A stretch of DNA of 50,339 nt, filler included, from Catajapyx aquilonaris (taxonomy: Eukaryota): NCBI GenBank assembly GCA_000934665.2. It is 2 parts of 2 records of this genome, joined end to end, with 100 filler letters (N's around TTAATTAATTAA, not from the genome) between each part and the next. Parts side by side here need not be neighbours in the genome. Positions count along the whole stretch, not along the records: positions 1 to 25,124 come from JYFJ02005424.1; 1 more part is not named here. One strand, 5' to 3'. Below the pieces are notes generated by a model. It made no database searches. It was not told the DNA's origin and was given only the letters and a program-made list of their open reading frames with translations. Made by a program: the position numbers and the translations under genes. Shown here piece after piece: positions 1-42,004 of this stretch. Each line of letters opens with the position of its first letter. Position 1 is the first letter of the stretch.

Positions 1-98
1 TCACGTGGTACCAGATGAAAAAAATTTGGCGGCTTTTTCGATTTTTAAAATGGAAAGGTCCACTGTGCCCCGTGGTCCACTGTGCCCCAGTCTCCCCA

Positions 99-1142
99 TA
101 TCATATTCCATTAAAATTCATACGTTAATTATCTCTGGCTATAATTAGGCAGCAATAATGTTCTATGCTTCTGGCCACCTGGTTATAACATCACTCAAGC
201 CCCACCCCCAATTTGTTCGAAGAGGGCGTTTAATTTTCGGTTGCCAGAATATGTATACCGTAGGGTGACCGGTGACGTCATGAAAATAAACAACACGGCC
301 GAAATTCGAACCTTTCTTGTAACTCGTCAATTCCCGTCTTAGCTGCCAGTCTCGCTGATTCCGTGCCACTGTTGACCTGGGGTCAAATCCGTGCCTCAGG
401 TCGCCCATATCAGGCTGGCACTGGGCCTGTGAAACGATCGGCTCGTAGTGACGAACGATGACGCTAACTGAGGGGAGGGGGCGTGCCAACGAAATCGGTC
501 GCGAGTTGAGAATTAATAAACAACGGACTCGGTAGGCCTCGATTGAGCATTACAACAGGAAGGACCAGTCACAGGGCAGGATGCGAATTTGTTTTATTTT
601 CTCGCCGAGTCTTCCTGACATTGTCGCTACCATTGTCGTTATCACCTGCTGTTCCTCAACTTATGATTCATGTTGGCCGCCATATTGCTCAATTCGAACT
701 CGAAACTGCTTGCCAACAGAATCGTTATTGGCATTACAGCACCGAATTCGGAACAGAGGGGTCCAGCAACAAAGAGCGGGGGTAAGGGGCGGGGCCTAAC
801 TGCCGGCTTTCCAATCCCGTGAAAGCAGCGCCGATCGGTTCAAGTCAGTTTGACGTCACCGCTAGTCAGTACGAACCGATCGGCGTTAAGAGAATACAGG
901 CCATGTACCAGACGAGTCATAGACGAGTCACAAGACAGGTTAGAATTTCGGCCGTGTTGTTTATTTTCACGACGTCACCCTACGTCACCTACTCAGGCAA
1001 CCGAAAACTAAACCCGCCCTTCGAACAAATTGGGGGAGGGGCCTGAGTGGCGTCAAAACAAGGTGGCCAGGAGCATGGGACATTATTTCTTCCGAATTAT
1101 AGCCAGAGATTATTAACGGATAGATTTTAATTGAAGGTGATA
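99..1142. mobile_element. Foldback/MITE-like element (~1.04 kb) with ~215-bp imperfect terminal inverted repeats
   Basis: ~99-315 (…tatctctggctataatt…ccaatttgttcgaag…gaaaataaacaacacggccgaaatt) is the reverse complement of ~935-1142; TA at both ends; no transposase ORF. Confidence 0.7.
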
Positions 1143-1425
1143 CATTTATAGACCATTAGAGTACTATGCAATCAAAATGCTTATGATTTTTAAATTAAAT
1201 AGTAAATTCGAATTCTCTCATTATTTTATCTTCATCTGGCCAGCCAGGGCCAGCAGGTAGAACTCATTCTGATTGGCTCGCGAGGAGTTTGAAAGTTAAT
1301 CCCATTGGCTTGCGCGAGAGTGGGCGGGGTTCGAAGTTAAGTCCGACGACAATATTTTGCTGTATCGGAGAATAATTATCAATTAATCATATTTTCACTT
1401 CTAGTACACTTCCATTTATTTCACA

Positions 1426-1639
1426 ACTAGCAGGATACCCGTTCTTCGCACGAGAATCGAAGATATTAATATATTGAAAAAATAGTAGAAGTTGTTATGG
1501 TAACTCCGTTGCCATGGACACCCGTTGCTATGACAGAGTATGGTGGTAGAGGGGCAGTGCGGTAGAGGGGAAGGGACGGTAGAGGGGGACATACCGACAA
1601 ACGCTGCCTTTTATATATACTGTATATATACAGTAAGAT
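1426..1639 (+). mobile_element. Short non-autonomous Helitron/DINE-like repeat, copy 1
   Basis: Starts actagcaggatacccgttcttcgcac and ends gggacataccgacaaac…tatat…agat; near-identical ends at ~47993-48198; internal GTTGCCATGG-type tandem units. Confidence 0.55.
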
Positions 1640-2590
1640 TTGTTTTGCACCGCATCCGCAAAACCCGACTGTTTCACTGTTTGTGTTACTCTGTGCCCTT
1701 TATGTCGAATAATACAAACTCTTCTTCACTTAAATTTCTGACAATACAGAGTGTTTCTAACTAGCGTGTCAATAATTTTATTACCCGCCAGTGATTTGGA
1801 TAGTGGGTAAGAAATATCGAGAGTATCGTTACCGGAATGATTCCCCCCCCCCCCCACACACACACGCATATCCGCTGTTATTGGTGGTGTACCAATGGAA
1901 AAGGGTTTCTATTGGCCCTATCTCTCTCTTGGCTCTGTGATCCCTCCCTCACACCTCTTCTTCCTTCCACGTGGTGACTAGTTTCATTTGACCAGTAGAA
2001 TGCTTTTTGCGAGGTGCTCCGGAAAGGGCATGCAATGGCCGGATGGTGTAGTACTGTATGCACAGCAACGCTTTCTTGGCCACAAAGGCGCATGACGACA
2101 AAATTTGGACAAAGTTTGATTATTCCACCTGAGAGCACCGAAATGGCTAGAAACGCAGATTTTGACCATGGTATCTGTGCAACTTAGCAGACAAAATAAT
2201 ATGTAAAAAAAAAAAGTTTAATTTTTGCATCTACTACACAGGGTGGTGCACTCTACAAGTCCCCGGGCTATCAGGGGGGAAGCGAAGAACGCCACCGTAC
2301 AAGGCGAAGGTAGGATTTTGAAACCGGGGAGGAAATAATAGGATATCCAAACAAACTCACCTGAACACGAAGAGAACTCACCGAAAAGCGCTCCAAGTGA
2401 GAAAATCAATATCCTACTCGGGGAACGAATGCGGGACCTTGATGTGGAAGGCCTGATGTTACAACTGAACCACGATGCCTTCCCGGAGGTAGGCCATTGC
2501 CAGGGGACGGATATAGGCGAGTCTGGAGGCGGTTGTCACAACCTGGGGACCTCCCGGGGATCCATTATCTGCTTCTTCGTTCCAATTTTG

Positions 2591-3075
2591 ATATATCAAG
2601 GTGTCCCTTACTAGTCGCCCTTCCGTCCGGCAGTACACTCTTTGCCCCAAAACAAGTCGTAAATGTAGGGAGGAGAAATGTGGAGGCAGTAACCGGTAAC
2701 GAGATAAACGCTGATCAAGATGAGGTCGCCCGTAAGACAATCGCTGCAACCCACGCACCGGCTTTTGTGCGGGAGGAGCGGCAATGGCTTTAGCAAGGTC
2801 GTCTCGCGCTCAGGGAGCAATGTCGGGTTCATCTCCTGCCCCCTAGGCAACCCCTACACGTGAAGGAGTCTATTGCCGCTCCTCCCGCACAAAAGCCGGT
2901 GGGTGGGTGGCCGCGATTGTCTTAGGGGCGACCTCGTGTCTCGATCACCATCGTTTATCTCGTTACCGGTTACTGGCTCGACATTTCTCCTCCCTACATT
3001 TACGACTTGTTTTGGGCCAATGAGTGCACTGCCAGACGGGAGGGCGACTAGATAGTAAGGGTCACCCTGATATAT
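2591..3075. mobile_element. MITE with ~190-bp inverted arms
   Basis: 2591-2785 is the imperfect reverse complement of 2872-3075; the mirror-image ORFs in the track (LVALPSGS…PKQVVNVGRRNVE) come from this symmetry. Confidence 0.75.
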
Positions 3076-3726
3076 GGTGTAGCACTGGGAGTATAATGTC
3101 ATGTGATGGCATCTCTGCCAATACTTGTATCAATGCGGGTAACTGCTATTCGCGATGGTATTGTGGTTTACTGCACATCTTCTGGTTAGGACAAGACAGA
3201 AGCGGAGTGGAAATTGAGAGAGAAGGAACAGAGACAGGGAGAGCGAGGGTAAGATTAGAGATGCAAATAAAAGAAGTGAGTGTTGGGGGTATTCAGGTAA
3301 TGGGAAGAGAAAGGGGGGATGTACTGTTCATAGAGTATGGACAGTATCTAATCCAAGGCAATATGGAATCATCCACCTGTAGCATTACTCCAATAATTTT
3401 TCTGGATAGCTGGATACCCCCTCTTTGCAATGCGATAGTTAATTGGCTATACAGTACTGTTCAATAGATCTAGGTAATATCGTCAATATCGGTCTTAACA
3501 AACATTTTGTTTTAGTATTACTACTGCTACCATATAATGTACAGAGGTTTCTTTTTTATGTTTATAATGATGTACAAGTATAAGTTATAAATTAAAGGGT
3601 AAAAATTTATTAAGGGTGACGTAAAAGCGTACAATAAGCCAGTCATTTTTTAAAGTTTACCCGGTAAGGATGAGGCGGAGTACAAAGTGGCACAATATAT
3701 TTTTTGGCTGAATTACCGTAGTTACC

Positions 3727-4665
3727 AGTGATGGGGAAGATACTTTCAAAAAGTATCTAGATAAGATACTAGACACTTGGAAATATTTCCATCTAGATAC
3801 TGTACTAGATACTCGTTCGACATTGTATCTAGATAAAATTTCGGATACCGTCCATACAACCCCATATACGATATACTGACTCGCAGGCGTGTGCGAATAT
3901 ACAAGGTGATTCTCTGGAATGGAAACCCAAACATTCCTCAATAACTTTTTAACTATGGTATGGTTCCAGGTGAAAATTGACATGTATCATGCCAAACAAG
4001 GTCTGATTAAAGAATATACCAAAAGTGGTCCCCTCCAGCATCCAGGAAGAAGCCAGGGGGAATCTCAAGGCAACAGTCCCTGTTGCCTTGAGATTCCCCC
4101 TGGCCAAGCGGGCGGGCGGCCTAGGATGGATGCATGGCCGCCGCGAATCAGCACGAGTCTTCGGCAATATGCAGACTCGCAATAAAAAGTTCCTGGATGC
4201 TGGAGGGGACCACTTTTGGTATATTCTTTAATCAGACCTTGTTTGGCATGATACAAGGTAAGTACATGTCAATTTTCACTGGGAACCATAGCATAGTTAA
4301 AAAGTTATTGAGGAATGTTTGGGTTTCCATTCCAGAGAATCACCCTGTATTTATTTTGACTTATTTGTCATCCTCAATAACATTATACTCTGGTTCACTG
4401 TGAATTGAAACATATGTATAGTTTATTCGTTTGGAACTGTAATATAATAAGCTACTCTAGAGTCTACAGTGTAGGGGAATCATGTTTTCATCAGGAAAAT
4501 CACCTAAAAAGTATCTGGAAAAGTATCTGGTGATGCCACACAGATACTCTACGAGTGTACGTAAAGTAGCTAGATACAAGTATAGATACACAAACTTCTA
4601 ATTATCTAGATGAGATAAATATATTCATTTTGGTATCTAGATACTTGTATCTAGATACTTCCCAA
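3727..4665. mobile_element. hAT-like non-autonomous element with TATCTAGATAC subrepeats, interrupted by a nested MITE
   Basis: Begins cagtgatgggg; (g)tatctagatac motifs cluster at 3750-3835 and 4510-4660; ends …gatacttcccaa. Confidence 0.5.
3902..4347. mobile_element. Tc1/mariner/pogo-type MITE
   Basis: ~145-bp near-perfect inverted arms (caaggtgattctctggaatggaaaccc… / …gggtttccattccagagaatcaccctg), flanked by TA on both sides. Confidence 0.8.
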
Positions 4666-6316
4666 GGTAAAATAATATTTTTCAACGTCGAGCTTACGTG
4701 TATTCCTTGAAAACACATGCTAACATGAGCATATATTCGAAAATTTATTATGTGACACAGCTACATAATATATTCGCCTTTATCTTCGACTGTGCGCTTT
4801 GGGGGTGCAACTGCACCCCACCATACTGTTCCCAATGGTCACTTTTTCCTGTCCATTTTTCTTGCTTCTCCTATGGTTTTAATTGACCAAACTTCATCAA
4901 AGATTTTTCCTGCCACGCTACCATATATGGACGGTGTTATGCAATAAAGTGTCAACCCACAAAAATGTCAAAATTGTGTTAAACCCAGGAACATATATCC
5001 AAAGGATCGTACTTCATTCAGTTAAAATCCAGCTGGCGAAATCTTCATGCTTCTGCCATAAATGACCGAAACGTAAACCCACAAATGGGGACCAATATGA
5101 AGCTTAGGCGATGACGTCACATATGAAGGAAAAGGAGAAGCATAACAATCGGCGCTGGGGTAGGTTTGCACCAAACCTCATCATTGCCGGCCTAGCAGTT
5201 TTCATGCGACAGTCGCGCATCGATGTCTTATTGATTTCATGAAACTTAGGGCATAAAAAATTAATGCTTGCATATATTATATTAGGCGCTGGTCTAGGGT
5301 ACGGTCTGACTATACATTTGTACTACATGTACTATATTTATATAACTAGAGTTTTATGGGGGTGTATTTGCGCTCCGCCTCATCAGAATAAGTTGGGTCC
5401 GTGACCTCACCAATTCCACATTTATCAAGCTTATTTTTCTTATTATTCTGACAGTATAATGTTATAACAGTATTACGACAATGCCAACTATTGTATAACC
5501 TATAGTGTCATACAAAATTTCTGCAAATGCAATAGGACGCATTATCTGCCTGTTCTAGTGTGCAAACCGACAATGAAATGCGCAGAAATGAGAAGGAAAG
5601 GAGAATATTTTTCAAACTCTCGGTTTCTTTAGTAACTTAGGCCTACACAGTAACATGCACAAAGCATATTATTGTCAATAGTACAATATGAATCCTTGAT
5701 TTTCAAAACCCTTATTGTCATAATTTGGTCAAAATTAAATTTTGAATTATGCAATATACGTAATTGTATAACTTATAATCTCGGAACGTGCTTTCTAACG
5801 GCCAGATGAGTTTTTTGCTAGATCAAAATATGCAGTTCCCTAAGGAAATGTTTGCTAGAAATTCATCCCTTAGGGAATAATGCAACTTTCAAACTTGCAA
5901 CCCTGAAACATCTACATCTTCATGGCGGCTTGGATCGTTCTGCATTTCAAGTCTTCGTATTGTCATTGTGTTCGGTTTTTCCGCTTCTCAGCGTTGGGAA
6001 GAGAAAAACAAAGGTTTGACATAAAAATGACAGGGCTGCCTCTCTTTTATCCCCTAAACCAAGTAGCCGCTTGAAAGATGTCCAACCAATGAGATCGATC
6101 TCTAGATCCACTCAGCCATAGGCACTGAAGAGATCGCGGCATGTACTCCCATACAAATCCCCCTGGAAGACGTCAGCATGACCCCCCACCCACCCCCACC
6201 CCCACCCACCGCCCCCCTCTTATTAATACAATATAATCCCTCGTGATTCGGGTTCGGGTTCGGGTTCGGATTTGGTGGGCAAACTAAAAGTGAGGGGGGG
6301 GGTACTTCTCCTGCAG

Positions 6317-6604
6317 GAGGTGAGGTTCAAGGCGCACAACCCAAAGGCTCACTCCAAAGGAGGCTCGCTAGAGAACTCTGTGAATGGTCGGTCAGGCGAC
6401 GCAGAAGCGGCCACAGCCCTCCTCCTACCGCCGGGCAAGGACATCAACAAGATATTGGGGCTCACCCCGTCGGCCATTGACATGTACTCTCGCATCATGT
6501 TCCCGGTCTTTTTCGTCTGCTTCCAGCTCATGTACTGGATTATCTACCTGCACATCAGCGACGTCATAGCCGACGATCTCGTCTTGCTCAATGCTGATGA
6601 ATAA
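6317..6604 (+). CDS. Rdl: GABA-gated chloride channel RDL, terminal coding exon copy 1 (end of M3-M4 loop, M4, stop; 95 aa)
   Basis: Acceptor cttctcctgcag|[27 protein letters not shown]…[60 protein letters not shown] matches the insect RDL C-terminus ([20 protein letters not shown]…[39 protein letters not shown]). Confidence 0.93.
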
Positions 6605-7465
6605 TAATTACTTACCGATTCCTACCTTTTTTGTAACTGTTTCGAGTACCCATCATCAGCAGCGCTCCTCCCCTACCCTCCCAACCTCACCCTTTAAACA
6701 AATAAACGTAGAGGATGTGCACAGGCACTGTGTAGATGTGTACTTAGCACGTCGTAACGCAGTTTTCGCTGAAGGCAGTGATGTCGACTAGAGATTTTCT
6801 GCATGGTCGAGGCTTATGGTAACTGACTTGCGCAGCACGCAGTTGGAAAATGACTTACTGCGCAAACATCTGAGCAGATGTACTGCGCGTAACTCAGACT
6901 CATGCGCGATAGCCCTGCAAGAGCGTCGTCGACATTTGAGTGCATCGAAAGTCAGTAATCCCAAGTGCCGACCATACAAGAATGCTTTAAAGTCGACGAA
7001 GATTACAAGTGTCAGTAGGGCAGAAAACAAGACATATGTATAATATGCTAGTTGAATTAGTCATGCCATAAACGACACTTTTCTCAATGGCAGTGGCTCC
7101 TTGTAATCTGTCAAGAGCGACTTACATTACCACGCTACATTGCGAATTGCCTTCCTCAGGTTTTCCTACCCTATTTCCATCATGGCCTGACCATCTGTTC
7201 TGCGCAACAATTGAAATGTCTGGAAACTATGTTGGTTGAGTTTGAAAAGTGATATTTACGTCTTCTCGCACATTCTGCTTACCATACGAAAAGTGCCAAA
7301 AAGTGCAGTATGTCGCTCGGCACAACGATTCGTCGCACTTGACAATTTCCAAGTGTAATAATTGTTTTGTTTTGTTTCGTCGATTATTTTGCAAACAAGA
7401 AACGTTTATAAGATGTGATTTTAGACTTAATAGATGTGGTTATTGTACATTTTGCAGGCAATTTT

Positions 7466-7631
7466 AGTAGTCTCTCGGTCTGATGGGAAATGGCGCCCTA
7501 GGTGAGGCTTACTAATTTTGGCGCCCCCCATAAGTGACTCCAAAACCTACTCAAATTGCGAAGCCCGTACTCCCGTACGCAGTGGCGCCCTAGGCAGTCG
7601 CCCAGGTCGCCTAGCCAGAAGACCGGCACTG
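7466..7631. mobile_element. Short GC-rich hAT-like MITE remnant
   Basis: Repeated ggcgccctagg motifs and end …cgcctagccagaagaccggcactg, a GC island in AT-rich context; left end degenerate. Confidence 0.4.
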
Positions 7632-7951
7632 ACGTGTTAAGCTTATAAGGTACTATATTTTGAAAAACAAAGTGCAAAATCAAGGTTGATAATGATCTTG
7701 TTGATATCTGGACCAGTACCATTCATTAATTGATCAGAGCCTATACAAAGAACTAAAAGTAATTGATTAAAGAGCCGAATAAAGTGGATGTGGAACGTTT
7801 TGTGGCCCTCTTGGTGCAGAGTAGAGCAATGCTGACTGCAATATTAACGCTACACTCTCCATACCATGAATATTTCTAGTACTTCATATTGTAATACCAG
7901 TAACAATCTATATGAAGAAATGTAATGAGTGTAAACTACTGCCAACAATGG

Positions 7952-7968
7952 CATCTGCTCAAGACTGA
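7952..7968 (+). promoter_or_regulatory. Conserved 17-nt element CATCTGCTCAAGACTGA downstream of Rdl exon copy 1 (putative 3'UTR miRNA target)
   Basis: Identical at 12857-12873 and 19570-19586 although the flanks are strongly diverged. Confidence 0.65.
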
Positions 7969-10900
7969 TGTAATCTCAAAGTGTGTGAGCAAGACATACA
8001 CAAGTAAGCTGCCTCCGGCACAAAAAATATTGTTACACGTGTGAAGTGCAGAGTGTGGAAAATAAGGATTCTATGTTATAACCCTTTTCATAGGATTACA
8101 TGAGCTGTACAGTATGTGTCTATCGTATAGGCATCACCAAAGCATAATAATTTCCCTTAACTTCACTCTCGCTTGTTTACAGACGAAAAATGCTATATCA
8201 CAAATCGGTGTTCAAATCATGTCACAGAAATTATAGTATTTGCTGGGGGACCTTTGTTAGTGTGTTATTTACCTGCACCTATATCTGAAGCGTTGTGTGT
8301 ATCTTAAACAAGTTGATAATGTCATTTATACTCTAAAAATATTGCACCGACTCTCACAGCATTTTTACAACATAACCAAAGCGGCAGTTTATGTTTAACC
8401 CCAAAAAATACTGCATTTTCTGAAACTACTTGATCAAATCTGTGTAGAATGCTATATAACTTTACACATAAAAGCTATTTAATCCATTGCAGAGAGGATC
8501 TGTCGTCATACAGTACATTTTAAGGTACGCTAAGTTCGGATATACGCGGTGACTCGAGTTCATATGCAAATACATTGCGCTTGTCAGGGATTAATTTTGT
8601 GGTAGATGTTGTCTACTTATATTCGATTGTCCTAATCCAGTGAGTAAGTTTAAGTGTACTTCGCTTACAGCTCATTCATTTGCTCACATCCGTCCCTTAC
8701 CCACATTTAATTTGCTTGTCTCCCTCACCACATTCACCAACGTCGTGTGTTTGTACGTACATACCGTAGAATTATTACCATTGTATACAAAGAAAACTTC
8801 AGAGGGAGAGTGACGTCATTTATGAGGATGTGAAAAGCGCTTGTTTTCTCTTATCTCTCATTTGGAGAATGGTGTAAAATGGACTCTGTGCGACTTGAAA
8901 GAAAGGTACTGAAAGTGAAAGTGGATATTGTTTTGTGATTCTGGTCGTAACTTCATATATTATCCTATGAACCTTTTTCGGAATTATCATGACACCTCTC
9001 ATCGGATATCTATCAATTTTAAAACCAATAATATCAGTTTCACAGTAATTGAGGAGATGACCAGAATGACAAAGTTGGAAAGCAATACGAACTTGTGTTG
9101 ATTAGTTTTCCATATAGTCAGGCAGTGAGTTTTCATGCAATGTGCGTGGTACTCATATTTTAGACGCAGAGAAGATTGTAAATACAAAACGCTGATGAAA
9201 CGTTCTTCCCTTGTTCTTACTTCTCCCAAGTTCAAGGTTATTCATGTAAAGCTTCTGTTCTCTAATAATTCTGGAATATCCGCACATGCCCTTGATGACA
9301 TTTCTGGAGGAGTTTGTATTTCCGAGAGGATATCCTCCTGGAGTTATGAGGACGTCGAATGAGGATAATCCTGGATATCTATGTATATCATCGATTGTCC
9401 AGGATATGTGAGCTAATCAGATATTGTCGAGAATGACAGACGTTTCGGACCTAAGAAACGCATGTCATAGTATAGAGAACCTATACATGACCCCTTGTCT
9501 TGTATGAACGTCATCACAACGTTACCTTTACCTAGAGTAGTAAAGAAGGGTTGCATGTACGTATATGGCGGCTCATCGGGCCCGTTTCGCTCAATGTCCT
9601 GCAAAAAACAAAGCACGACTTCAGAAAAAGTCTTTTTAAGAAATATCTAGTACTATGGATACCCAAGTACGGAGCAGCTGATGGCGGACAGTGACGTGAA
9701 AACGGCGCGTTGAGTGACTGATGGGGTGATTAATGACCAAACGCAACCTTATAACGGTCAGTTACCAACAGTCTTTGTAGTGGTTTATCTATCATATATA
9801 TCATTATATATTATAATTCTTTGGATGACGCATGGAGCACGCATTTGATTTGTAGGCGTAAAGTGCATACAGGATGAGGTTGAATGTCTGCCCTACCCGT
9901 TTTGCGCATCTGCGCAGCCGCGTGGCTTCGGGAATATAATATATATGTGGGTGTGTGTGGGTGTGTGACCTCACTCGTGTGTGTTGACGCGATGAGTTGC
10001 CAAGGTGCTAAAAGCGACTAGGGCTCGACTTCTTCCACACCCGGTATCACATACATAGATTCGGAACAAGGACGTTGAGGACGTCAGGTCCTATTTTATG
10101 GAATGCTGTGTATGACTTATTTTCTTTTAAAATTTATTTTTTCTGAAGTTTCATGGCGCTGAGTGCATGGCTTTGAATCCTGGTTGGTTGAGTAAGGTCC
10201 GACAAGTACGAGTTCGCATTACACTTTTTTGAAAAATTGAAGACATTGACATCTATGGATATCTATTGATACATCTATTGATATTTTCTGAAAACATGCG
10301 TGATATTTACGTGAATTCATCAATCCAGTGTTACGCGGAACAATATCGTGATAATTTCAATTTTGTTCATGACCTTATTCAACTCAATCTGTCATGAGCC
10401 TACTCTATAACAAATAGTTCGCTTGGTAGTTTACTCCCACTACCAGGTGGTTCAGAATCGACCAAAAGACGAATATTGCCTTTACATGGAACAGCAAGTT
10501 TTATTTGTAATTTGTTTAAGGAGTAACATGATATGTTAATGGATTTCGTATAACCATACCACCTATAGTTGAGAAAGATGTGATCACTCAATTTCTTAGT
10601 AGATTTGTGGTCATACGAACATCCGTCATCAGGTTTCCATGTGAATAAAAGGCACATACCAGGATGAAGTGTTTCTGGGGAAACAAGATCTCTACCTCGC
10701 ACTTCACTCAAATTTAGTGATACGCTCTTGACTAATTGAACCGTTAAGGAATCATTCTGGTGCAACTTTTTGGTTCCTTGGCAAAAGTGTTTGTCAATTT
10801 TGCTTATAAAAAAAGGTATGCACAAAGGTATTTAAAAAGCACGAAAAATCTTGGCTGCGAGTTCCTTTTCATGGACTTAGCTAATACTTAGACATCCTCA

Positions 10901-11560
10901 CTGAGATGTGAAGGGTGGAAAATGATAACAGCACAAGTCCATATGTCTCCAAATGCTGCACGACAAGGCATTTTAATTCCCAATTTATCTCTAATGTGTC
11001 TGAGGAAAGAACTAGATCTATTATTTTAGGATGAGCGCATGCTAATTGTCTATTAACACTGGTTAATAGACAATTAGCATGGCACAATTTTGGTTAATTT
11101 TCTCCCAGAGGATGAGTAAATTTTGGGGGACAGCAGTAGCAATGGTACTTGCATAATTAACTGCAAGCGGGTGAGGCAGCTAACTAACACTTATTTTGAT
11201 ATCGGTAATAACAATACCTACCTACAGTGCTAATAACGTGAGAATAATTTCAATGAAATATGGTGGAGTATCGCTGCCTGTGCTACCTCTGGGATATTAA
11301 ACAACAAATACAACTTCATTATTTCCATCGTAATAAGTCGGTCTTGACTGGAAATAATACCTGTGAGGCTGTTTTAGACCTCAGGACTTGTCGGTTATCA
11401 CTCTCCTGCCTTCGAATGCAGCATGAATAAGCTTGTCCCCGTCACAAACCGAAAGGAACGCTCGCTTTGACCGCTTCCAAACTGGTCTGGAAACCACCTG
11501 ATATTCGAGCATGGTCGCCATATCGTATCCGAGCTATACGACAATGTATTTCTTTGGCAG

Positions 11561-11872
11561 GAGGTGCGGTTCAAGGCACACAACCCAAAGGCCCTCTGCA
11601 AAGGCGGGACCCTCCTGGAGAACACAGTCAACGGAGGTGGTGGTCAGGGCGACGAAGAGTCGGCGACTGGTACTGGAACCACGCCTCATCTTCTGCCACC
11701 GGGAAAGAACATCAACAAGATGTTCGGTATCACGTCGGCCGACATCGACAAGTACTCCCGAATCGTGTTCCCAGTTTGTTTCGTCTGTTTCAATCTTATG
11801 TACTGGGTCATCTATCTGCACATCAGCGACGTATTGGCCGACGACCTCGTCTTGCTCAATGAAGAATCTTAA
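11561..11872 (+). CDS. Rdl: RDL terminal coding exon copy 2 (closest to canonical; 103 aa)
   Basis: Acceptor tatttctttggcag|[31 protein letters not shown]…[62 protein letters not shown]. Confidence 0.94.
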
Positions 11873-12856
11873 TCCTTGCACTTTTACCGTACCGGTGCCC
11901 TACCCTTGCTACCTGCGACTCCTCCCTTACAATTTTGTACTGTTGCACATCCTCCCACTCCTCTACATCTCAACAATGGTTGCATAAAGCACAAGAACTA
12001 CTTTAAAAGGGGAACAAGCTTTATTTGAACTGAAATTTACATTTTTGGATATGTCACACATGAGGTACATTCACCATGCATGCATCACACTTTCATCGCA
12101 TAGATTTGAATGGAAGCTTTTTCCGAGGCCGGTGACTGAATTTTTAAGACGGTTTTTTAAAGCAGGCAGGGACGTTTAAAAGACGATGACCAGGCTGTAC
12201 GGGGTTTGTGCTATCCTTTTTTTAAAACTTGGCACAGCGCGAAATATACCGCATTTCTCGTCACATTTTGGCCAAATTTTGCAAACGACCATAATGTATT
12301 AATTATTACAAGAGGCGTTGCGTGCCTAAGAACTGTATGTCCACTTTGGTTCAAGAAATTGTTTTTCCAGTAGGGTATATTTGACCCCATTGGTCATTGT
12401 CAGTGGTGAGGTGGTTTCAAAGGATATATTGCACTATTTGCTTACCGGAGCGAAGGTGCCAAACATTTTGTGCAGGAAAGTACGCGTTGTTACACCTCCT
12501 TAACTTGCAAGTTTCTTCGTTCTCGGTTTTTTACTATACATTTTCATGACTTGAAGGTTGTGATAGATATGTCGATGAGGGAATTAAGATTTATGCAGTT
12601 TATAAGTTAGATGATTTCAATATAGAAACAAGAAAGCGGAATTCATTCCATAAAAATAATGAGCTCGTGAATTACATCTCTCTAGGTTTCCCCACAAGTG
12701 TACACCATAATTCCCAAGTGATTTCTCCCTTGAAATGGCACAATATAAATACACTTACTGTCTAGTTTGACATCGGTTTTTTTTGCCCTGAGCACCATAA
12801 GAACTCTATTGTTGGAATGAGTCAATAGTATTACACTACATCCGCTAACGCTGTGT

Positions 12857-12873
12857 CATCTGCTCAAGACTGA
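12857..12873 (+). promoter_or_regulatory. Conserved 17-nt element downstream of Rdl exon copy 2
   Basis: CATCTGCTCAAGACTGA, ~985 nt after the stop codon. Confidence 0.65.
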
Positions 12874-13320
12874 AGCCAAATAATAAGTGAAGAAAGCCTG
12901 AAAGTGCAAACAGTGGACTTCACCTTCTCAAAACAGTGATAATAACTGCCCCAAATTTCTTGAGTGTTGAATGTGTAATATTACATCTCAGAACTTTAAG
13001 CATGTTTGACCCTTTGATAATATGCCCAAAAATATGCGTGGTGTTCTGTCTATAGCATAGGCATTGCGATTATGCCTGAAACTTATTCCCCTCATCAATA
13101 TCGTCGCCATTCTAGAACAAGAAACAATACAAACGCGTTAATTGCTATTTTAAACAATCTGTTTTACGACAGTTGGTGCACCCGCAACACCGCAAAAGTA
13201 TGTGTTCAAACCATCGGACCAATACAGTAATTCAACAGCGATAATTTCTGCTTTCCTTGCTCGGGATTAAAAAGAAAAAAAGCATACAATAACTTCCCCT
13301 TTCCTCAGTGTACTTTAAAC

Positions 13321-13321
<1 letters not shown>

Positions 13322-13391
<70 letters not shown>
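13322..13391. repeat. (TTA)n microsatellite
   Basis: Direct reading. Confidence 0.95.
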
Positions 13392-14452
13392 GCAGTTATG
13401 AATACAAGAACGTAATTTAAGACCAGCCAAGTTCGGGTATACGCGGTGATCACAATTTACAAAAATCTTTATTAATATGATAGGCTACTACGTGTACTCA
13501 CTGAACCTGTTGTCCCATAAGACTGGTCGATTATGGCTTAGACCAAAATGTAATGTCGAAATCCAAGAGTTTTCTGGGACATGAGGTACATCGTACCGTA
13601 CAGAAAGGAAAAGGGAAGTCAAATTCATGTTGTGTAGATTTGTACTCTACCGTATGTTTTGTACAGTTAGGAAATGTTCTCCCCCCCCCTCCCCAATTCC
13701 CTCACTTCATAAACTCAATTAATTAGTTTTGTCTCGGCTTCCTAGCAATATTGTTATGTAAGAATACCGTAACGTATGCAATAGCAGATTTTGTAACCCT
13801 TCCCCCCTCCCCCCTCCCTACAAAAACCGACAAAAACCTATGTGTGTGTGTGATTTTAGACACTTGTCGAAGAAGACAGGAACAGTTGAAAGTGACTCTT
13901 GCGCGACTGATGAACAAAATTTTGTTAGGCCCAACCTCCCAATCTCACCTTACGCATCACACATATAAAGGCTCACATTTCCGCACGTGACACATGCAAA
14001 AAATACAACCAGTTACATTTTTCCATAAACATATCCTTCCATCTACATTATATGTTGACCAATTGCTTTTTTACAGTCGTGTAAAAATGGACCTGTGTGC
14101 CATAGGAACGCTGTGTACTGTTAAGTGGCAGTCGTTGTTTATTTGTTTTGGATCGCGCTGATTGGTTACCGCCAAAGTGAGCGACCGAATCGTTAATGCA
14201 CGGTGTAGGATCCTCATGTTTTAGGTGAAGAAAGAGTGTAAATACAAAGTGCTGAGAAATACACAAAATCTCTTTCTTATCACTTTTTTGTCTTCCACCT
14301 AGATAAAGATGCTTCACGATTTGATTTTACAGTGTTTCCGAATAATAACTTTTAGCTTGAAAGATGCACTGCTCTCTTGTACTTAATTTCGAGGAAGATT
14401 TTGCACTGGGTAAAAGATATGCCACGCAATACACACTCCGACTGTAGGCTTT

Positions 14453-14503
14453 CTTTGTCACTGCAGACTCCATCTTTTTTGTCACTGCAGACTCCATCTT
14501 TTT
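14453..14503. repeat. Short tandem duplication (tttgtcactgcagactccatcttt x2)
   Basis: Direct reading. Confidence 0.85.
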
Positions 14504-15342
14504 TCTCGTCATGGAGAATGATAGTATCCTGACTTTTGATTGGGTTACTCTCGAGAGAAGTGGAGTTGGCTGGTGCTAATAATCTTATCGTTTACATTAT
14601 GTCTCTGATTTGTGATATTTCTTTAACTGTGTCCAAAATCCAGGATCTGCTGCCACGGGCAAACTCTCTTATTCCTCAGAAACGGCCACCATTAAGAGTT
14701 ATGACGAGGATGTAATCATGAACTTATCATGTAAACATTGTATGCAACCAGCACAACCTATACTTTGTGCTCCTTCTAGTTGCTTATATTTAGAACTTGA
14801 TGAATATTCCTTAGCCTACTGATATATTCTACACTGCTTTTGCTCACTTCATGTCTTTGCGTCTTTCCTCATCAACCTTATTTCCACCAACACTAAATTG
14901 AGTCCGATCTCGAGAAGGTTGTCCGCCGAGTAGTGGTTGGTAGCAGTAGACATTGTTCTCACTGTCCAATCCGTTCCGCTCCTGGTGAATACCAGAGTTG
15001 GTCGCCTACATAAGGGACAAAAGTGGGGAGAATAGATGGAACATAGTTCACTTCATTCCAGGAGCAAATTTCAAACAAGCTCTCACACACGCACATGCAT
15101 ACATGCACCCACGCACGCACACAACATGGATCAGGTCAGGCCCTTCGAGCTGAGGACTATTCTACTATAAGCAACCTCTGGAGTTGACCAGATTATAATA
15201 TTAGGGGCCGGTTGCGTAATTGATAATAATTAATCATTCGGATATTAAATATCATTTAGCACCGTCCGCTGGACTAGTAGATGAGATGGTTCAGTAATAA
15301 AGCGCTGCTTAACTAAACAGATTTCCAATTTTCCACTCAAAT

Positions 15343-15463
15343 GAGGGGTGTGGTGGAAAAAGGTGATAACCATCATTTGTGACATTTTTGACCTAAACAC
15401 CTAGCAACTATGTAAAAAACGTGACAAACAGTTTGGTATACTCCAAGTTCAAGTATCATATAC

Positions 15464-15501
<38 letters not shown>

Positions 15502-15646
15502 GTGTGTGTGTGTGTGTGTGTGTATGTATACTAGACGGCCACACGGACTAGAACATTCTCTATGATTTAAGATAATGCAAACTTAAATTCGTTCTCCTGA
15601 AAAATTAGACCTTTGTGGGTTATCACGTTTTTCCACCACACCCCTC
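15343..15646. mobile_element. Sola-like MITE containing a (TA)n(TG)n microsatellite
   Basis: TIRs gaggggtgtggtggaaaaaggtgataacc / ggttatcacgtttttccaccacacccctc; 4-bp TSD aaat on both sides; GAG…CTC termini. Confidence 0.7.
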
Positions 15647-15995
15647 AAATGGCAAACCAACTTCTACACCAGGCAATGCGCATTTTTAACAATGCTAGCT
15701 TTTTGTTCGGAAAAAAAATAGTTGTGCCCAATTCTAGAGCTGTTTAAAATGTGCACTGCAGTTGCACTGTATAGTTTGGCTTTTCATTTTATGTGGAAAT
15801 ATGTGAGAAACGGACGTAAGTTCACCTAACTGCAGCTGGACTTTTATAAAAAATACAATATTGAGTGTGCATCCTGTGGAGTTATAAAGGAACATCCAGC
15901 TAAATTCAAATGGATAGCCTAGTTGGACGCTAAGAGAGGCTATTTCTCCTATTGTGATGTCTTTTGAATTAAAGCATTCCATGGCCTACTTGTAA

Positions 15996-16076
15996 TTTGA
16001 GATATGTTGGGTAAACCGGGCAAAACCCTTGTCGTAGTGACAAGGGTTTTGCCCGGTTTACCCAACATATCTCAAA
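15996..16076. repeat. Perfect hairpin, 38-bp stem and 5-nt loop
   Basis: tttgagatatgttgggtaaaccgggcaaaacccttgtc-gtagt-gacaagggttttgcccggtttacccaacatatctcaaa. Confidence 0.9.
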
Positions 16077-17233
16077 CAAAAGGATTGAGCGAAAGGGAGT
16101 TATGCGCGATATCCTGCTGCTTATTATAAAAATCCAGCTACAGCAAGTGAGCCCAGGCAGTCGCCCCCATCTTTGTTGCACATTCAGATAACGAAAATTT
16201 CAGACCACAACTGACTTTCCGAAAAATACATGGTATTGATGAACTCCACCGATGTTTTCTTAACTATTCTTTTTGGGTAATATTTTTATTGGCCCAAGAA
16301 GTAATCAAAAGTGTTGGAAAGCCGTCCGTAGACTATAGGCAAATTCAAAGGTCCTTGTTTGCGTGATATCAGATAATCTATGCCTAACTTCAGGTACCGT
16401 AGACATCATTCTCTCAGAGCTGCTTCATAAAACTGGAAATTCAAGTATTTCTCCTCTTTGACACCTCCCCCCCCCCCTTTCCCCCTGCACTCCTCAGTTT
16501 GTCAGGGGAGCTCATAAACACCATTATGAACTGTAAAAAGGTGCATGGGCAACTTAATGCCAAGTGCGTTCTAGTCGGCGCTTCGTGCCGGGTTATGAAC
16601 ATGTGCATGGGTGGGCAACATAATTTTGCGGGGCACATGAACCGAATTATGGGTAATTTCCAGCGATGGACACCATTCATTTCAAAATGAATTATTTACC
16701 TTTGTTAAGGACTCATGCCCTTTTCATAAAAGAGTACGTTCAGCGTCCGCACGGCCACTATCAACAATTGGATTATCTATATTCACCTGATATTCATTTA
16801 CTTCCATTTCCCTTTTGCGTCAATTCCAATCATCTGAATATACTGGATGAGCTTCACAAGCATTCATTCCTATTTGAAATTTGCACCTACAGTATTCCAT
16901 GACCTTATAAATCCACTTCCATTATTTTGTCAGTTTGGCTTAATTCGGAATGAATATAATATTATATTCGGAATTGAATGGTAGCGTCACTGGTTTTCAT
17001 ATAGTGGTCAAAATATGATGGCATGGACTGGAAGCCAGAGAAGCATAGGAGCAGGGCGGACTCGGCAGTGGGAACAAGCTTAATCCAGTCTTTCGCCTAG
17101 CTGAGCCGTATCCGGATTGCCGTCCAAGCCAGTACGACGGTTATCAACTGCTTCTCTACTCAAGGCTGCAAGAACAATGTTATAATGTACAGTGTACCCA
17201 ATCAATGTTTCTAATATGATTTCTCTCGTACAG

Positions 17234-17548
17234 GAGGTCCGGTTCAAGGCTTATGACAACAAAGCTCACTCGAAGGGAGGTACACTGGAAAATACAGTGA
17301 ACGCATCCCGTGGTCCGCCCCCTCCCCCGCCCCCGCCTCCAGCAGCAGACGAAGAGGCAGCGGAGAAACCCCCGGACAAGAAGTTGAACAAACTGTTCGG
17401 GATCACTCCAGCGGACATCGACATGTACTCGCGAGTCATGTTCCCGGTCTTTTTCGTCTGCTTCCAGCTCATGTACTGGATTATCTACCTGCACATCAGC
17501 GACGTCGTAGCCGATGATCTCGTCTTGCTCAATGCTGAGGAATCTTAA
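17234..17548 (+). CDS. Rdl: RDL terminal coding exon copy 3 (polyproline loop; 104 aa)
   Basis: Acceptor atttctctcgtacag|[107 protein letters not shown]. Confidence 0.93.
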
Positions 17549-19569
17549 TTCCATCACTTCCTCCACATTTTGTAATCGATCCATCTTTCATAAACCAAAT
17601 CCTACCCCCACTCCTACCCCAATTGCAATAACCTTATTCCCACCAACAAAAGCGTACACTTAAACACTATGTACATGAAGTGATGTTTTCCGTAAATATC
17701 AGAATGCACCGTGAATCTAGTCACCGATCAAAAATGTTCTAGAGTGAGAATCATGAACAATGCATATGGCGATGTGTAGGCAGCAGAAGTGACCTCAGGT
17801 ACAGGGAGTGTCGAAAAGTCATAATCCAGAAAAAAATCTTTATAGATCATTCTTAAAATATAAATCCATGTTTCCTATTACAAGGTGGCGTCAAAAAAAG
17901 ACTATTCCTGGGGCATATACAGAGGTTGACGAGTGACTAAGCTTCTTCATCCAATGATTAAGAGCGGCAGTGGCGCCTTATTTGCCACCTCCCTTTCCCC
18001 AACCCCCACCTGGGATACTGCTACAACCACTTGTGCTGGCAGTTACTGCAATTCGGTTCTCCACGCAACCCTTCATTCACTCCATTGAAATTTTCCCAAT
18101 GACAGAAATGAAGTGAACGACGCTGCATGGACAAATTAGGAAGTGAAGAGCAGTGCCGCACATTTATACCAGTCTCCCAGGTGGGGGATCAAATCTCCAG
18201 TCGAGACTGACGCTCTTGACGGATGACTATTTATTCCGGAGTCTACCATATCGTCAGCCAAGATATAAAACCGAGCACAACACCCATACAATAAATTGCC
18301 CCATGAATTTTCCCTGCCGCTAGACGTCAAAATTTTGAGGCCTACAAATTGTTTAGTAGTACGTGCAGGATATGTGATTGCATTTAAAATAAAACCATTC
18401 ACTACCCCCTCCCCCTCCAAAACACTTCATATTACACTAGTTAGCTAACTTTTGGAACTGGAATGAATTCATAAGTGAATAATAGTTTGAGACGTCATAT
18501 TGAGCTTCAGTTCTTCCCTTTTTAAGATAGATGAAAATGTAGGAGTTTATCGGAAAATTTATTAGTTTTTCTTCCAACTTTAACGCTCATATTTTGCCTC
18601 ACGAGCCATTTGTAACCATCATTCATAATAATATTACAACTACGACTTAAATGCACATAAAAGAAGAGCACATCACATGATGGTTCGTGCCAGTTAAAAT
18701 ACACCTGGTGCACAGAGTTTATAGTTTGGCTCCTGAAAAGTATTGTGTAGAGATAAGGTGCCCGAACGTGTTTTGCACATTTGTAGCGCACGCTGTCGCT
18801 ATAATCATTATGTAATATAACATTAACTGTTATTTGTTGCACGCTCTTCAGCTCCTAGCGAATGACAGAATAACAGTTCGTTTTGTGTCATATGATGATC
18901 ACGTTCAGAAGTCAATGATGCATGGCAGGTGCGTTATTTTCAGTTGAAACATGCGTTCACGTTAGTAAAAATCATTCAAATATAATCTATCTTTAGAATA
19001 AGCCCCATAAATTCACAAATCATTCTAAACCGACAGAAACTGTTGTAGGTTTTGTAGCTTTAATATAACTTTATTATTGTTTTATTTTTATTTTTATTAA
19101 CAAGAACAACAACAACAATGAGTAACATTCTACGTCTCTAAAACGTGATCGCTGTAACTATTCTTGCACAAACAAATGTGCCAAACAAATTGCAGGCAAA
19201 TGCTTGTAGCACATTGAAGAACTATAATAACTGCATCAATTAGCCATTTATTTTCATGTGGTGCGTCCGGACGTGACTCCATATTCCAAAATGTGATATA
19301 ATTGAGCTAAAATAATTAGATTTTTAAATATCGCCAATTTTTTGTTCAACTTGTTAGTCATTCTGCTGCTATTTTCTCTCGCCAAAAATTACAACTCATT
19401 ACAAAACAACGCATCCTATAATACCCCACAGCCATACTTACCATGATCTTCCTTATGCAGATTAATATCCCCAAGTATTACTACTACCAGACTTATGTTA
19501 GATATATACTTCTAATATTAAGAATAGAAGTACAGATGTAAATGGAAGTGTATACTACCGCCTTGATGG

Positions 19570-19586
19570 CATCTGCTCAAGACTGA
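19570..19586 (+). promoter_or_regulatory. Conserved 17-nt element downstream of Rdl exon copy 3
   Basis: CATCTGCTCAAGACTGA; the upstream context agtgtatactaccgccttgatgg aligns with copy-1 agtgtaaactactgccaacaatgg. Confidence 0.65.
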
Positions 19587-19670
19587 CATAAAACACAAAA
19601 AAGTGATGCAAGTGTTACACCTCTCAAGAGACCTATAGAAAGCATTTCATTTCCTCCTTTTTAGAAACTA

Positions 19671-19831
19671 CAGCCGTTGAACCAAAGAACTATATTACGT
19701 CACGTTCAGCCCACCTCCACCAGGTTCTTTCCTCCTATCACGTCCCCGAATCGCTCTGCAAGCATTCTACTGCGCATGCTCAGAAAACATGGATGGTGTG
19801 ACGTCATATCGTTCTTTGGTTTAACAAACTG
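19671..19831. mobile_element. Small MITE with TA TSD
   Basis: cagccgttgaaccaaagaactatattacgtcac … gtgacgtcatatcgttctttggtttaacaaactg, flanked by TA. Confidence 0.65.
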
Positions 19832-20267
19832 TATCTGCAATAAATTATTGTGAGAATTTCTTTAGAATTGTACGTGCGACGGTTATAAAACTTACTCTGT
19901 TACTTGGAAACGTTATCGTTGCACGTTAACGAAAATGCATGTAACTTATTGTTAGTTACTAGCTGTATATTTTGTTCTGTATAAAAGTTCATTTGCATAC
20001 CGGGAGAAGTACTGGCGGGGATTTGCAAATTTATATTGGCCATTAATTTATAAATTAATGAAACCACATTGACATTGTGGGCCTTGTCACGAATACAAAA
20101 ACACATTTGTACTGCCACGATTGCATTTGGTCATATACATATTGTTGCATTTCTGAAAACAGTAATTAGCATGTCCAAATATCCAAAGAGTATACTTTGT
20201 TCAGAATGTCACTTTTTATGCTCGTTATAACAGTGGGCCTAGTAATAATCCTTATATTGCTCTATAC

Positions 20268-25124: not shown

Positions 25125-25224
25125 NNNNNNNNNNNNNNNNNNNNNNNNNNNNNNNNNNNNNNNNNNNNTTAATTAATTAANNNNNNNNNNNNNNNNNNNN
25201 NNNNNNNNNNNNNNNNNNNNNNNN
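25125..25224. other. Artificial assembly spacer (44 N + TTAATTAATTAA + 44 N)
   Basis: Exactly 100 nt and symmetric; the 12-mer places stop codons in all six frames. Confidence 0.9.
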
Positions 25225-25226
25225 TA

Positions 25227-26654
25227 ATCCTGCACAACGTCTGCTACTTTTGTTTCCAGCCAGAGGACAAGCTCAACCCAACCATACCACAGTCACTCTA
25301 CAAACTGTTGGGACGAGACCACCTCTTTCCGATACCTGCTAGTCCGAATAGATGGGGGGAAATTTACCGAGCCGTTCATTATGAAGACGTTGACATGAAG
25401 AGAGCTCGAGAGAGGGCAAAAGATCCCGACAAGTACATCCTCTCTCTGGAAGAGTATGCACTGCTGGACATAGAAAAACGTCGGAATGTAACAATACGCG
25501 TGTACGTCCCAGAATTGTCTATGACTGATTTTTACCCCAATGGTACTTACAGCGGTTTCGTGGGCTCAATTTTCTATGGGCAGGCTGATGCAACAGTGGT
25601 ATTATATTTTACTGCCCAGTCAATCCGAGCAGTCACTGCACCGTTTCCTGTAATATTCCTTAGATTTTGTTTCATAAGAAGGCATGCTCAGCCAGACATA
25701 AAGTGGTACCTAATTGTCCAACCTTACACCCCAACAGCTTGGTTGGGTGTGTTTCTGACAGTCATTTTCTCGTCCATAATATTGTACATGCTTGAAAATG
25801 GCGAAGGAAGGATACGAACAGCTATTATGACAGGTAATGAACGAGCTTCGTCTCTCCTAAACATGTTGAGAATAATCATGCGTGAAATAATCGAGCAAGC
25901 AATTTCACTTGCACCTTACCCATCGCTTCGAGCCTTTTATTCGTACGTGTTGTTGTTTTCATTGGTGATTGGATGTCTATACAAGTCCAGAATCGTCGCT
26001 CTGCTCACTTTCCCAGAGACTGAGGTCCTGCCCAACACAGTCCGGGAATTGCACACCTCCAAATTTCCCATTGGTATAGTGCTAGCAATGAGGATTCTCA
26101 TCGGGAAAGGAATCAAGATGAGTGGGTTGAAATATGCGCAGGAAATGTACGACAGGAGTGAAACAGTGTCCCGTTGGGGCGAGTGTTTCGAGAGAGCAAT
26201 TCTCGAGGATTTTGCTTGTCTCGTGACAGACTACCATTATCGCCGAGAGTCGGTGAACTTCGTGGACCACAACGGGAACCCTCTGGTGCATTTGATGCCA
26301 GAGTATTATTTTCCCTCCTACACAGGACCAGCCTTGCCACGGGATGTAATAGACGCTCCAAGAATTTTAAGAGCATCGCTTCACATGTATGAATCCGCCA
26401 TATATTCGCAGAGAGAAGAGTACCCCAATCACCGCAAATTCCTCCGTCACATCCTGCGAGCCCGACACTTGGCCTCCGAAGATGGCAGTGTAACTTCCGA
26501 TGACCGTGTCCTGACCTTTTACAAGGTGTCCCCTGTCCTCCTCGTGTGGTCTTTCGGACTAGGTTTATCCAGCCTAGTTTTCCTTTCGGAGTTGTTGGTT
26601 CCTCGGAAGACGTCGAAAGACACCAATGTCCCCATCTACCCGTATTTGGCTTAG
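25227..26654 (+). CDS. Divergent ionotropic receptor (IR, variant iGluR family), 5'-incomplete, no intron in the visible part
   Basis: Frame is open from the gap to TAG at 26654. S1-like GTYSGFVGSIFYGQADA; pre-M1/M1 IVQPYTPTAWLGVFLTVIF; LRAFYSYVLLFSLVIGCLYKSRIVALLTFP…PNTVREL; S2 FACLV…VHLM…YESAI; final TM LTFYKVSPVLLVWSFGLGLSSLVFLSEL. Confidence 0.85.
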   Translation: MLHNVCYFCFQPEDKLNPTIPQSLYKLLGRDHLFPIPASPNRWGEIYRAVHYEDVDMKRARERAKDPDKYILSLEEYALLDIEKRRNVTIRVYVPELSMTDFYPNGTYSGFVGSIFYGQADATVVLYFTAQSIRAVTAPFPVIFLRFCFIRRHAQPDIKWYLIVQPYTPTAWLGVFLTVIFSSIILYMLENGEGRIRTAIMTGNERASSLLNMLRIIMREIIEQAISLAPYPSLRAFYSYVLLFSLVIGCLYKSRIVALLTFPETEVLPNTVRELHTSKFPIGIVLAMRILIGKGIKMSGLKYAQEMYDRSETVSRWGECFERAILEDFACLVTDYHYRRESVNFVDHNGNPLVHLMPEYYFPSYTGPALPRDVIDAPRILRASLHMYESAIYSQREEYPNHRKFLRHILRARHLASEDGSVTSDDRVLTFYKVSPVLLVWSFGLGLSSLVFLSELLVPRKTSKDTNVPIYPYLA

Positions 26655-41882: not shown

Positions 41883-42004
41883 CTTGGTGCTCCTTTGAGA
41901 CGAATGGATTAGGCTGAGTATTGCTTTTATTGCTTACGACTGCTTATGACAAGAACAAGATTTTGTATCAATACTGATTGGTTTCGGATCAGTCCATTCT
42001 CTGT

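Follow-up and report, generated by a model that had tools for sequence, protein, structure and literature searches.

Three copies of the last Rdl coding exon

The window analysed here is a stretch of 50,339 nucleotides from the genome of Catajapyx aquilonaris (assembly GCA_000934665.2) in which parts of two records are joined end to end, with positions 1 to 25,124 coming from JYFJ02005424.1. It carries three intact copies (A, B, and C) of the last coding exon of Rdl, a gene for a subunit of chloride channels gated by gamma-aminobutyric acid (GABA), all of them on the + strand and lying in stop-to-stop frames at 6227-6604, 11471-11872, and 17186-17548 (Table 1). Each frame reads ...Q followed across the acceptor by EVRFKA..., continues through a variable region to ...Dx[30 protein letters not shown]..., and ends in a stop codon. 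Upstream of A, B, and C alike lies a pyrimidine-rich tract followed by CAG; all three exons open with GAG GT in phase 0, and CAG and the first codon form a CAGGAG tandem acceptor in every copy. The stop codon is a TAA at the homologous place throughout, and the indels that distinguish the copies are in frame and restricted to the loop between the third and fourth transmembrane helices (M3 and M4). From the start of A to that of B we measured 5244 nucleotides and from B to C 5673 nucleotides. A sequence-only reading of this DNA had described three intact same-strand copies at these places, spaced 5.2 and 5.7 kb apart, with homologous phase-0 acceptors, stops of their own, and in-frame loop indels without any frameshift, all of which is borne out by the open frames, the Pfam and tblastn matches, and the alignment of the copies.

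The C-terminal, M4-bearing end of the Pfam domain Neur_chan_memb (PF02932) matches all three copies (E-values of 2e-4, 1.2e-6, and 2e-4 for A, B, and C) over positions 194/201-233 of 233, and B scores 29.5 bits (cut-off 28.1) while A and C reach 22 bits and stay below the cut-off, as expected of a fragment. By sequence comparison, the copies belong to RDL rather than to other subunits of ion channels of the pentameric ligand-gated type (pLGICs): their best matches share 60-76% identity and are named "GABA receptor subunit beta" or "resistant to dieldrin", and copy B aligns to residues 382-474 of the 476-amino-acid chain of insect RDL in the PDB (9she and three further entries) with an E-value of 2.7e-40, compared to 2e-7 for the next GABA-A chain.

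We searched both strands of the window by tblastn with five RDL proteins from our first homology search, including the full-length proteins of Schistocerca (473 amino acids) and Zootermopsis (509 amino acids). No Rdl exon beyond the three copies was found in these 50 kb: the matches cover only residues ca. 378 to the end of the queries, all other matches have E-values of at least 0.024, and no ligand-binding or M1-M3 part appears with E < 0.4, in agreement with the earlier claim that no such exons lie between the copies. Downstream of C, tblastn likewise detected no constant Rdl coding exon in the window, and since the next open reading frames (ORFs) on that side are unrelated to Rdl, the array forms the 3' end of this locus. 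There are no runs of N between the copies, and the only gaps in the window are at 25125-25224 and 49617.

Table 1. Features of the window around and downstream of the Rdl terminal exon array.
Feature	Position	Strand	Remarks
Acceptor region, copy A	6302..6316	+	pyrimidine tract and CAG; copy similarity (repeat family D2) starts at 6302
Terminal exon, copy A	6317..6604 (coding 6317-6601)	+	95 codons and TAA; end of M3-M4 loop, M4, C-terminal tail
M4 of copy A			derived residues, [20 protein letters not shown]
AATAAA, candidate poly(A) signal of A	6701..6706	+	97 nucleotides past stop; pattern match only
Acceptor region, copy B	11546..11560	+	
Terminal exon, copy B	11561..11872 (coding 11561-11869)	+	103 codons and TAA
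M4 of copy B			canonical, [20 protein letters not shown]
CATAAA, variant hexamer after B	11983..11988	+	111 nucleotides past stop; pattern match only
ATTAAA, first canonical-type signal after B	13266-13271	+	+1394; pattern match only
Acceptor region, copy C	17219..17233	+	
Terminal exon, copy C	17234..17548 (coding 17234-17545)	+	104 codons and TAA; proline-run loop
M4 of copy C			derived, [20 protein letters not shown]
AATAAA, candidate poly(A) signal of C	18290..18295	+	742 nucleotides past stop; pattern match only
Second AATAAA after C	18388-18393	+	+840; pattern match only
Presumed last Rdl intron	1..6301	+	no recognisable coding sequence; foldback repeats
Ionotropic-receptor-like ORF, next downstream gene	25227..26651	+	Pfam Lig_chan, E 7e-4, below curated cut-off
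Intronless F-box/leucine-rich-repeat ORF, 403 amino acids	29964-31172	+	F-box-like match, E 9e-14
706-amino-acid ORF	32560-34680	-	no Pfam match
Second ionotropic-receptor-like ORF	41535-41933	-	weak Lig_chan, below curated cut-off

Divergence and selection among the copies

When the copies were aligned together with 200 nucleotides of upstream and 300 nucleotides of downstream flank each, similarity was found to extend from ca. 15 nucleotides 5' of the acceptor to within a few bases of the stop codon. Direct repeats of at least 30 nucleotides in the interval 4000-20000 comprise the first 62 nucleotides of the exon, its last 183 nucleotides, and one unrelated pair of 34 nucleotides, with nothing else detected, so that the likeness of the three copies goes far beyond chance. 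Of six blastn comparisons of 1.5-kb flanks, five gave no match at E <= 0.01 and the sixth yielded one match of 20 nucleotides. Nucleotide identity among the copies is 71-87% and protein identity 73-76%. Calculated over aligned codons by the method of Nei and Gojobori, the synonymous (dS) and non-synonymous (dN) divergences are 1.16 and 0.159 between A and B (dN/dS 0.137), 0.875 and 0.158 between A and C (0.18), and 1.21 and 0.20 between B and C (0.166), and the synonymous excess is significant throughout (Fisher p of 1e-8 to 1e-11 across pairs). The duplication must be old, since the neutral flanks can no longer be aligned and dS has reached 0.9-1.2, and because dN/dS is as low as 0.14-0.18 in every pair at such nearly saturated dS, all three copies have been kept by selection. 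Neutral decay of one copy over most of that time would not fit these values, because its pairs would then drift toward a dN/dS of ca. 0.5. The comparison of dN/dS between copies that the sequence-only reading had proposed thus reveals purifying selection on all of them.

The two ends of the exon tell different histories for copy A, which is nearer to B (84%) than to C (71%) in the first 62 nucleotides and nearer to C (87%) than to B (78%) in the last 183 nucleotides that encode the M4 part, where dS between A and C is as low as 0.27. Judged from these alignments, the copies are mosaics that likely arose by exchange between copies or by a staggered origin, and the pattern suggests gene conversion between the non-adjacent copies A and C.

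An assembly artefact, or three separate Rdl genes with their other exons elsewhere, would produce a similar picture in a window that does not include the upstream gene body. A public run that may stem from the source sample (run X1; 29 short, DNA-like contigs at a depth of 0-9) contains no contig that spans two copies and no joint at any acceptor. Yet these contigs cover parts of the bin of each copy at 95% identity or more, no N separates the copies, and collapsed or duplicated reads would be nearly identical, whereas the copies are only 71-87% identical and embedded in unrelated flanks. Three separate genes are further disfavoured by the lack of any additional Rdl exon in the 50 kb and by the comparison with Plodia and Pieris, whose whole-gene pairs differ over their full length. 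We therefore regard both variants of this explanation as very improbable. A duplication of the whole Rdl gene was also considered for the window copies and rejected, given that no ligand-binding or M1-M3 exons of their own lie between or around them on either strand of the window.

A derived M4 region in copies A and C

Copy B carries [25 protein letters not shown], the form common to the RDL matches that we tallied, with few changes at most. It is also the copy nearest to other species, with 76% identity to the damselfly Ischnura, compared to best values of ca. 66-71% for A and C. The databases contain no close relative of this arthropod, and the best matches of the exon stay at 70-76% identity. 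Both A and C show the same four replacements in and just before M4, i.e., K>M, V>M, C>F, and N>Q. We typed the position of the M4 Asn in 266 proteins, of which 237 have N alone, 22 have Q alone, and three have H; of the rest, two have both N and Q, one has N twice, and one gave no match. An alignment with PDB chains shows that the vertebrate GABA-A alpha-4 subunit has the M4 Asn as well. The M4 of the solved insect RDL (PDB 9she) is the same as that of copy B except for three residues in DKYSR...ADDL, and this chain has the canonical Asn-type M4, unlike A and C; no PDB structure with an M4 of the A/C type turned up. What appears to be new here is that A and C alter four residues of the M4 region that are nearly invariant elsewhere, including the change from Asn to Gln. 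The loop of copy C stands out by a run of nine prolines.

The Rdl terminal exon in other arthropods

A search of related taxa, as suggested by the sequence-only reading, uncovered the same exon in multiple copies in Cimex, in Timema, and in copepod-like sequences. The clearest case is the bed bug Cimex lectularius, whose gene for "gamma-aminobutyric acid receptor subunit beta" (RefSeq isoforms X1-X18) we examined in 16 isoforms. Three different full copies of the exon, arranged in tandem and each with an M4, tail, and stop codon of its own, come after the same upstream sequence: one in X12/X16 (e.g., XP_024083547.1, X12), one in X10/X14/X18 (e.g., XP_024083545.1, X10), and one in X9/X13 (e.g., XP_024083544.1, X9). 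These isoforms were found by reading the members of clusters formed at 90% identity; such clusters hide isoforms, and a first screen of 97 full-length matches for proteins with the same N-terminus and a different C-terminus had returned cross-species pairs only. The protein set contains 41 pairs that share their first 100 amino acids and differ in the last 45, all of them from Cimex. As in the window, the duplicated unit in Cimex (types i-iii) is the exon from EVR[FY]K, after ...QT, through M4 to the stop codon; unlike in the window, the three copies have the same M4 helix and vary in the loop and the final residues. The earlier statement that no duplicated terminal exon set of Rdl had been described was therefore too strong, though we found no paper in the open literature that discusses these isoforms.

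Further Cimex isoforms (X1-X8 and X11; P0342, P0336, P0331, P0017, and others) are modelled with a partial fourth copy, ending just before M4, as an internal exon and consequently with a loop of two modules.

Three conserved copy types are found across six species of Timema stick insects, with short gene models that are split or fused (P0296, P0276, P0283, P0285, P0122, P0126, P0081, and P0001). The 224-amino-acid model of Timema poppense holds two copies in series and scores twice the usual bits, and from these models Timema probably has an array of the same kind that has been mis-annotated.

Copepod-like sequences comprise two copies, one with an Asn-type and one with a Gln-type M4, and many unnamed records are of the Gln type alone. 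In one record (P0164; JGI, 458 amino acids, on a contig of 2907 nucleotides), an RDL body runs through ...PKQT into EIRLNMHD, the start of the Asn type, and is followed by an exact repeat of ca. 50 residues of the M3-loop segment and then by ...PKQT joined in the same frame to LHDGGG of the Gln type, a junction that equals the Gln-type acceptor seen in genomic fragments. This arrangement is suggestive, at the level of the sequence, of two spliced isoforms collapsed by the assembler. We found no paper on copepod Rdl variants in the open literature. In the Tigriopus californicus model P0010 (718 amino acids) and in another record, P0121 (163 amino acids, on a contig of 1116 nucleotides), no stop codon separates the Asn-type M4 from the Gln-type copy that follows, and in P0121 the two are ca. 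8 codons apart, of which the last, a Q, resembles an acceptor CAG. This run-on may reflect read-through or serial splicing, a lost stop codon, or an artefact.

Models of this sort bring up serial combination, in which a donor within the exon, ahead of M4, would splice the loop portion of a copy onto the acceptor that comes next and the array would mainly serve to lengthen the loop. The 601-amino-acid models of Cimex indeed join the partial fourth copy, ending ...YSRIVFP, to the next EVRYK, and gene models of Tigriopus and Timema fuse two copies. However, the latter contain intron-derived residues or a truncated M4 tail and look like artefacts of gene prediction, the matching site in the window (CCG/GTCTTT or CCA/GTTTGT) looks like a poor donor against the consensus, and the full M4 and stop codon are under selection in all three window copies. 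We consider serial combination improbable for the window.

Single copies were found in Schistocerca, Zootermopsis, Cryptotermes, Periplaneta, Cloeon, Neocloeon, and Diaphorina, with isoform clusters read for each. In some single-copy species the first Glu of the exon is present or absent, and isoforms with and without it are annotated in Schistocerca and Zootermopsis, as expected from a CAGGAG tandem acceptor at the exon start. Pairs of lepidopteran proteins labelled as isoforms X1 and X4 were examined as possible alternative terminal exons and discarded, given that they differ over their full length and hence represent separate genes.

We also calculated a tree of 37 terminal exon sequences with 97 columns kept and only one Cimex copy included. 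The window copies A and C group together (97/93) and are joined by B (89/74), the Timema types form one clade (97/87), and the copepod Gln types stand apart (100/99). Within the limits of this short alignment, the tree is indicative of arrays that arose separately or were homogenised within lineages and of a change from Asn to Gln that occurred twice. A common origin of the Gln-type M4 of the window and of copepods is not supported by the tree, and neither is common descent of the array duplication across lineages, as the copies group by lineage (in this short alignment with one Cimex copy).

Probable alternative last exons of a single gene

We think that A, B, and C probably serve one Rdl gene as alternative last exons, with the body of the gene located upstream of the window. 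Such a gene for a GABA-gated chloride channel subunit would have its ligand-binding and M1-M3 exons there, and the constant exon before the array (ending ...PKQT in relatives) would be joined through its donor to the acceptor of A, B, or C. The transcript would then terminate at the stop codon and poly(A) site of the chosen copy, and each mRNA would contain one copy, with exclusivity resulting from termination alone. Because the copies are terminal and each has its own stop, this exclusivity requires no special device of the docking/selector type. The gene would encode three classes of subunits with a common GABA site and pore that differ in the last third of the intracellular loop, M4, the extracellular C-terminal tail, and the 3' untranslated region (UTR), with copy B providing the canonical form. 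We infer that all three copies are spliced in this organism and that the choice between them is regulated, and the differences in M4 and the loop may alter gating, modulation by lipids or drugs, or targeting. Terminal exon choice may be regulated by neural factors acting on proximal poly(A) sites, which are obvious candidates for this role. In mutually exclusive exon clusters of the Dscam1 exon 6 type, which are governed by docking/selector RNA pairing, one intronic element is complementary to a selector upstream of each copy. None of the 25 longest among 54 inverted-repeat pairs in 1-17300 links one arm to sites before two or more copies, and a docking site could lie outside of the window.

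Several observations weigh against this interpretation. The use of A, B, and C in Catajapyx is predicted from DNA, and the notion of one gene follows from the absence of alternatives within 50 kb, with the upstream exons lying outside of the window. Open frames are weak evidence when taken alone, since 3-8% of neutral copies simulated with substitutions only are still open at d of 0.45-0.6, and it is dN/dS on which the case rests. The canonical copy B has only variant hexamers and neither AATAAA nor ATTAAA within 1.39 kb of its stop codon. By analogy, the Cimex precedent argues for alternative use of the copies and, with its identical M4 helices, not for a functional role of M4 differences, and the Cimex isoforms are automatic RefSeq models.

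Some of these points would also fit a scenario in which the gene only ever uses one copy, in all likelihood the canonical B, and A and C persist as relics of duplication with little or no splicing. Only B retains the nearly invariant M4 of RDL, with the N that 237 of the 266 typed proteins have alone; the copies are known from DNA; and a few per cent of neutral frames stay open by chance. Against this scenario, dN/dS is low in every pair at nearly saturated dS, the acceptor region has been kept in all three copies though the introns can no longer be aligned, the replacements in A and C are the same four and do not look like random damage, and Cimex isoforms use such copies alternatively. We thus view sole use of one copy as unlikely and favour alternative last exons, much as the sequence-only reading had proposed: anatomy, selection, and the lack of other Rdl exons all speak for the one gene with three terminal exons that it envisaged, while its transcript-level part stays an inference.

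Relation to known Rdl diversity

The sources of Rdl diversity described in PMC12309072, PMC7891696, and PMC13762713 are exons 3 and 6, editing of the RNA, variants of the loop, and duplication of the gene, and in the literature consulted, work on Rdl isoforms has dealt almost solely with exons 3 and 6 and with RNA editing. In Drosophila and many insects, according to PMC12309072 and PMC13762713, exons 3 and 6 are mutually exclusive, with one variant per transcript and changed agonist potency. Like the window copies, these are tandemly duplicated homologous exons of the same gene, but they are internal, encode parts of the ligand-binding domain, and have donors on both sides, whereas the window copies are terminal and have their own stop codon and 3' UTR. 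Whole-gene duplicates of Rdl (RDL1/2/3 of Lepidoptera and those of aphids) yield subunits with different loops and C-termini, according to PMC6121307, and differ over their full length, in contrast to the window with no other exon duplicated within 50 kb.

A different precedent is the unc-49 gene of Caenorhabditis elegans. Bamber et al. in 1999 reportedly found that its common N-terminal part is joined to one of three sets of 3' exons, and these alternative sets are said to include the whole transmembrane domain. In the window only the loop end, M4, and the tail would be exchanged, and the origins of the two systems are independent. The outcome in the nematode is one gene for three GABA receptor subunits, UNC-49A, B, and C, as described in PMC3990606.

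Our search of the open literature for alternative terminal or M4 exons of Rdl returned nothing, with supplements of the surveys of Cys-loop ligand-gated ion channels in cockroach and other species lying outside of its coverage, which may bear on novelty. A study of the planthopper Laodelphax striatellus by Jiang et al. (2021, Insect Sci) reportedly concerns "novel alternative splicing of RDL exon 9". It is said to list variants 9a, 9a', 9b, and 9c: a single Glu would set 9a apart from 9a', and seven residues together with a gap of two residues would distinguish 9b from 9c, and the potency of GABA and beta-alanine in oocytes was reportedly changed while block by ethiprole and fluralaner was not. 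We take this exon 9 to be probably the homologous exon, as the variation by one Glu would fit the CAGGAG acceptor and the reported pattern as a whole would fit duplicated copies of it. The architecture is hence not categorically new, being annotated in the bed bug and probably in print for the planthopper.

The window adds one more deep-branching lineage in which the exon is present three times, and two of these copies have a changed M4 that lacks the nearly invariant Asn. Also new is the recurrence of terminal exon arrays across arthropods, often mis-modelled in public annotations, and several public gene models indeed fuse or split the Rdl terminal copies wrongly. The broadest claim is one that we put forward tentatively and consider open to serious doubt: that arrays of the last Rdl exon evolved repeatedly and independently in this lineage, bed bugs, stick insects, and copepods, and that here and in copepods they gave rise to a second M4 class in which the Asn shared by vertebrate GABA-A subunits and insect RDL is changed to Gln (here also with Cys>Phe, Val>Met, and Lys>Met), such that one gene would encode channels with the same GABA site and pore and a different lipid-facing helix. 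If true, these channels could differ in gating, in modulation by lipids and allosteric drugs, and in synaptic targeting, and the arrays would constitute a third, overlooked axis of diversity in a major target of insecticides and parasiticides. Cyclodienes, fiproles, isoxazolines, and meta-diamides act on RDL as their target. Should its last exon be chosen from an array as well, any cloned RDL complementary DNA would represent one of several loop/M4/tail classes, and expression studies, resistance screens, and gene models may miss subunit forms. M4 is the lipid-facing helix and influences pLGIC gating, as stated in PMC8119899, and M4 variants that occur naturally on a subunit otherwise the same would offer a clean means of investigating it.

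Surroundings of the array

The presumed last Rdl intron upstream of copy A contains local inverted repeats at 99-1142, 2611-3051, and 3899-4350, with arms of 61-156 nucleotides that are 83-100% complementary and look like foldback elements or elements of the miniature inverted-repeat transposable element type. Rfam gave no match in the window. Downstream of the array, the first ionotropic-receptor-like ORF (25227-26651, + strand) begins directly after two runs of N (25125-25168 and 25181-25224). For the 403-amino-acid F-box ORF, a set of 2369 candidates drawn from 5.8 billion proteins contained no homologue at E <= 0.001. The 706-amino-acid ORF on the - strand coincides with an island of 60% G+C and features a repeated Cys-rich motif (C-V-C-x-G-P-C-x-C), Ser/Asp-rich repeats, and tandem repeats of 18-66 nucleotides.

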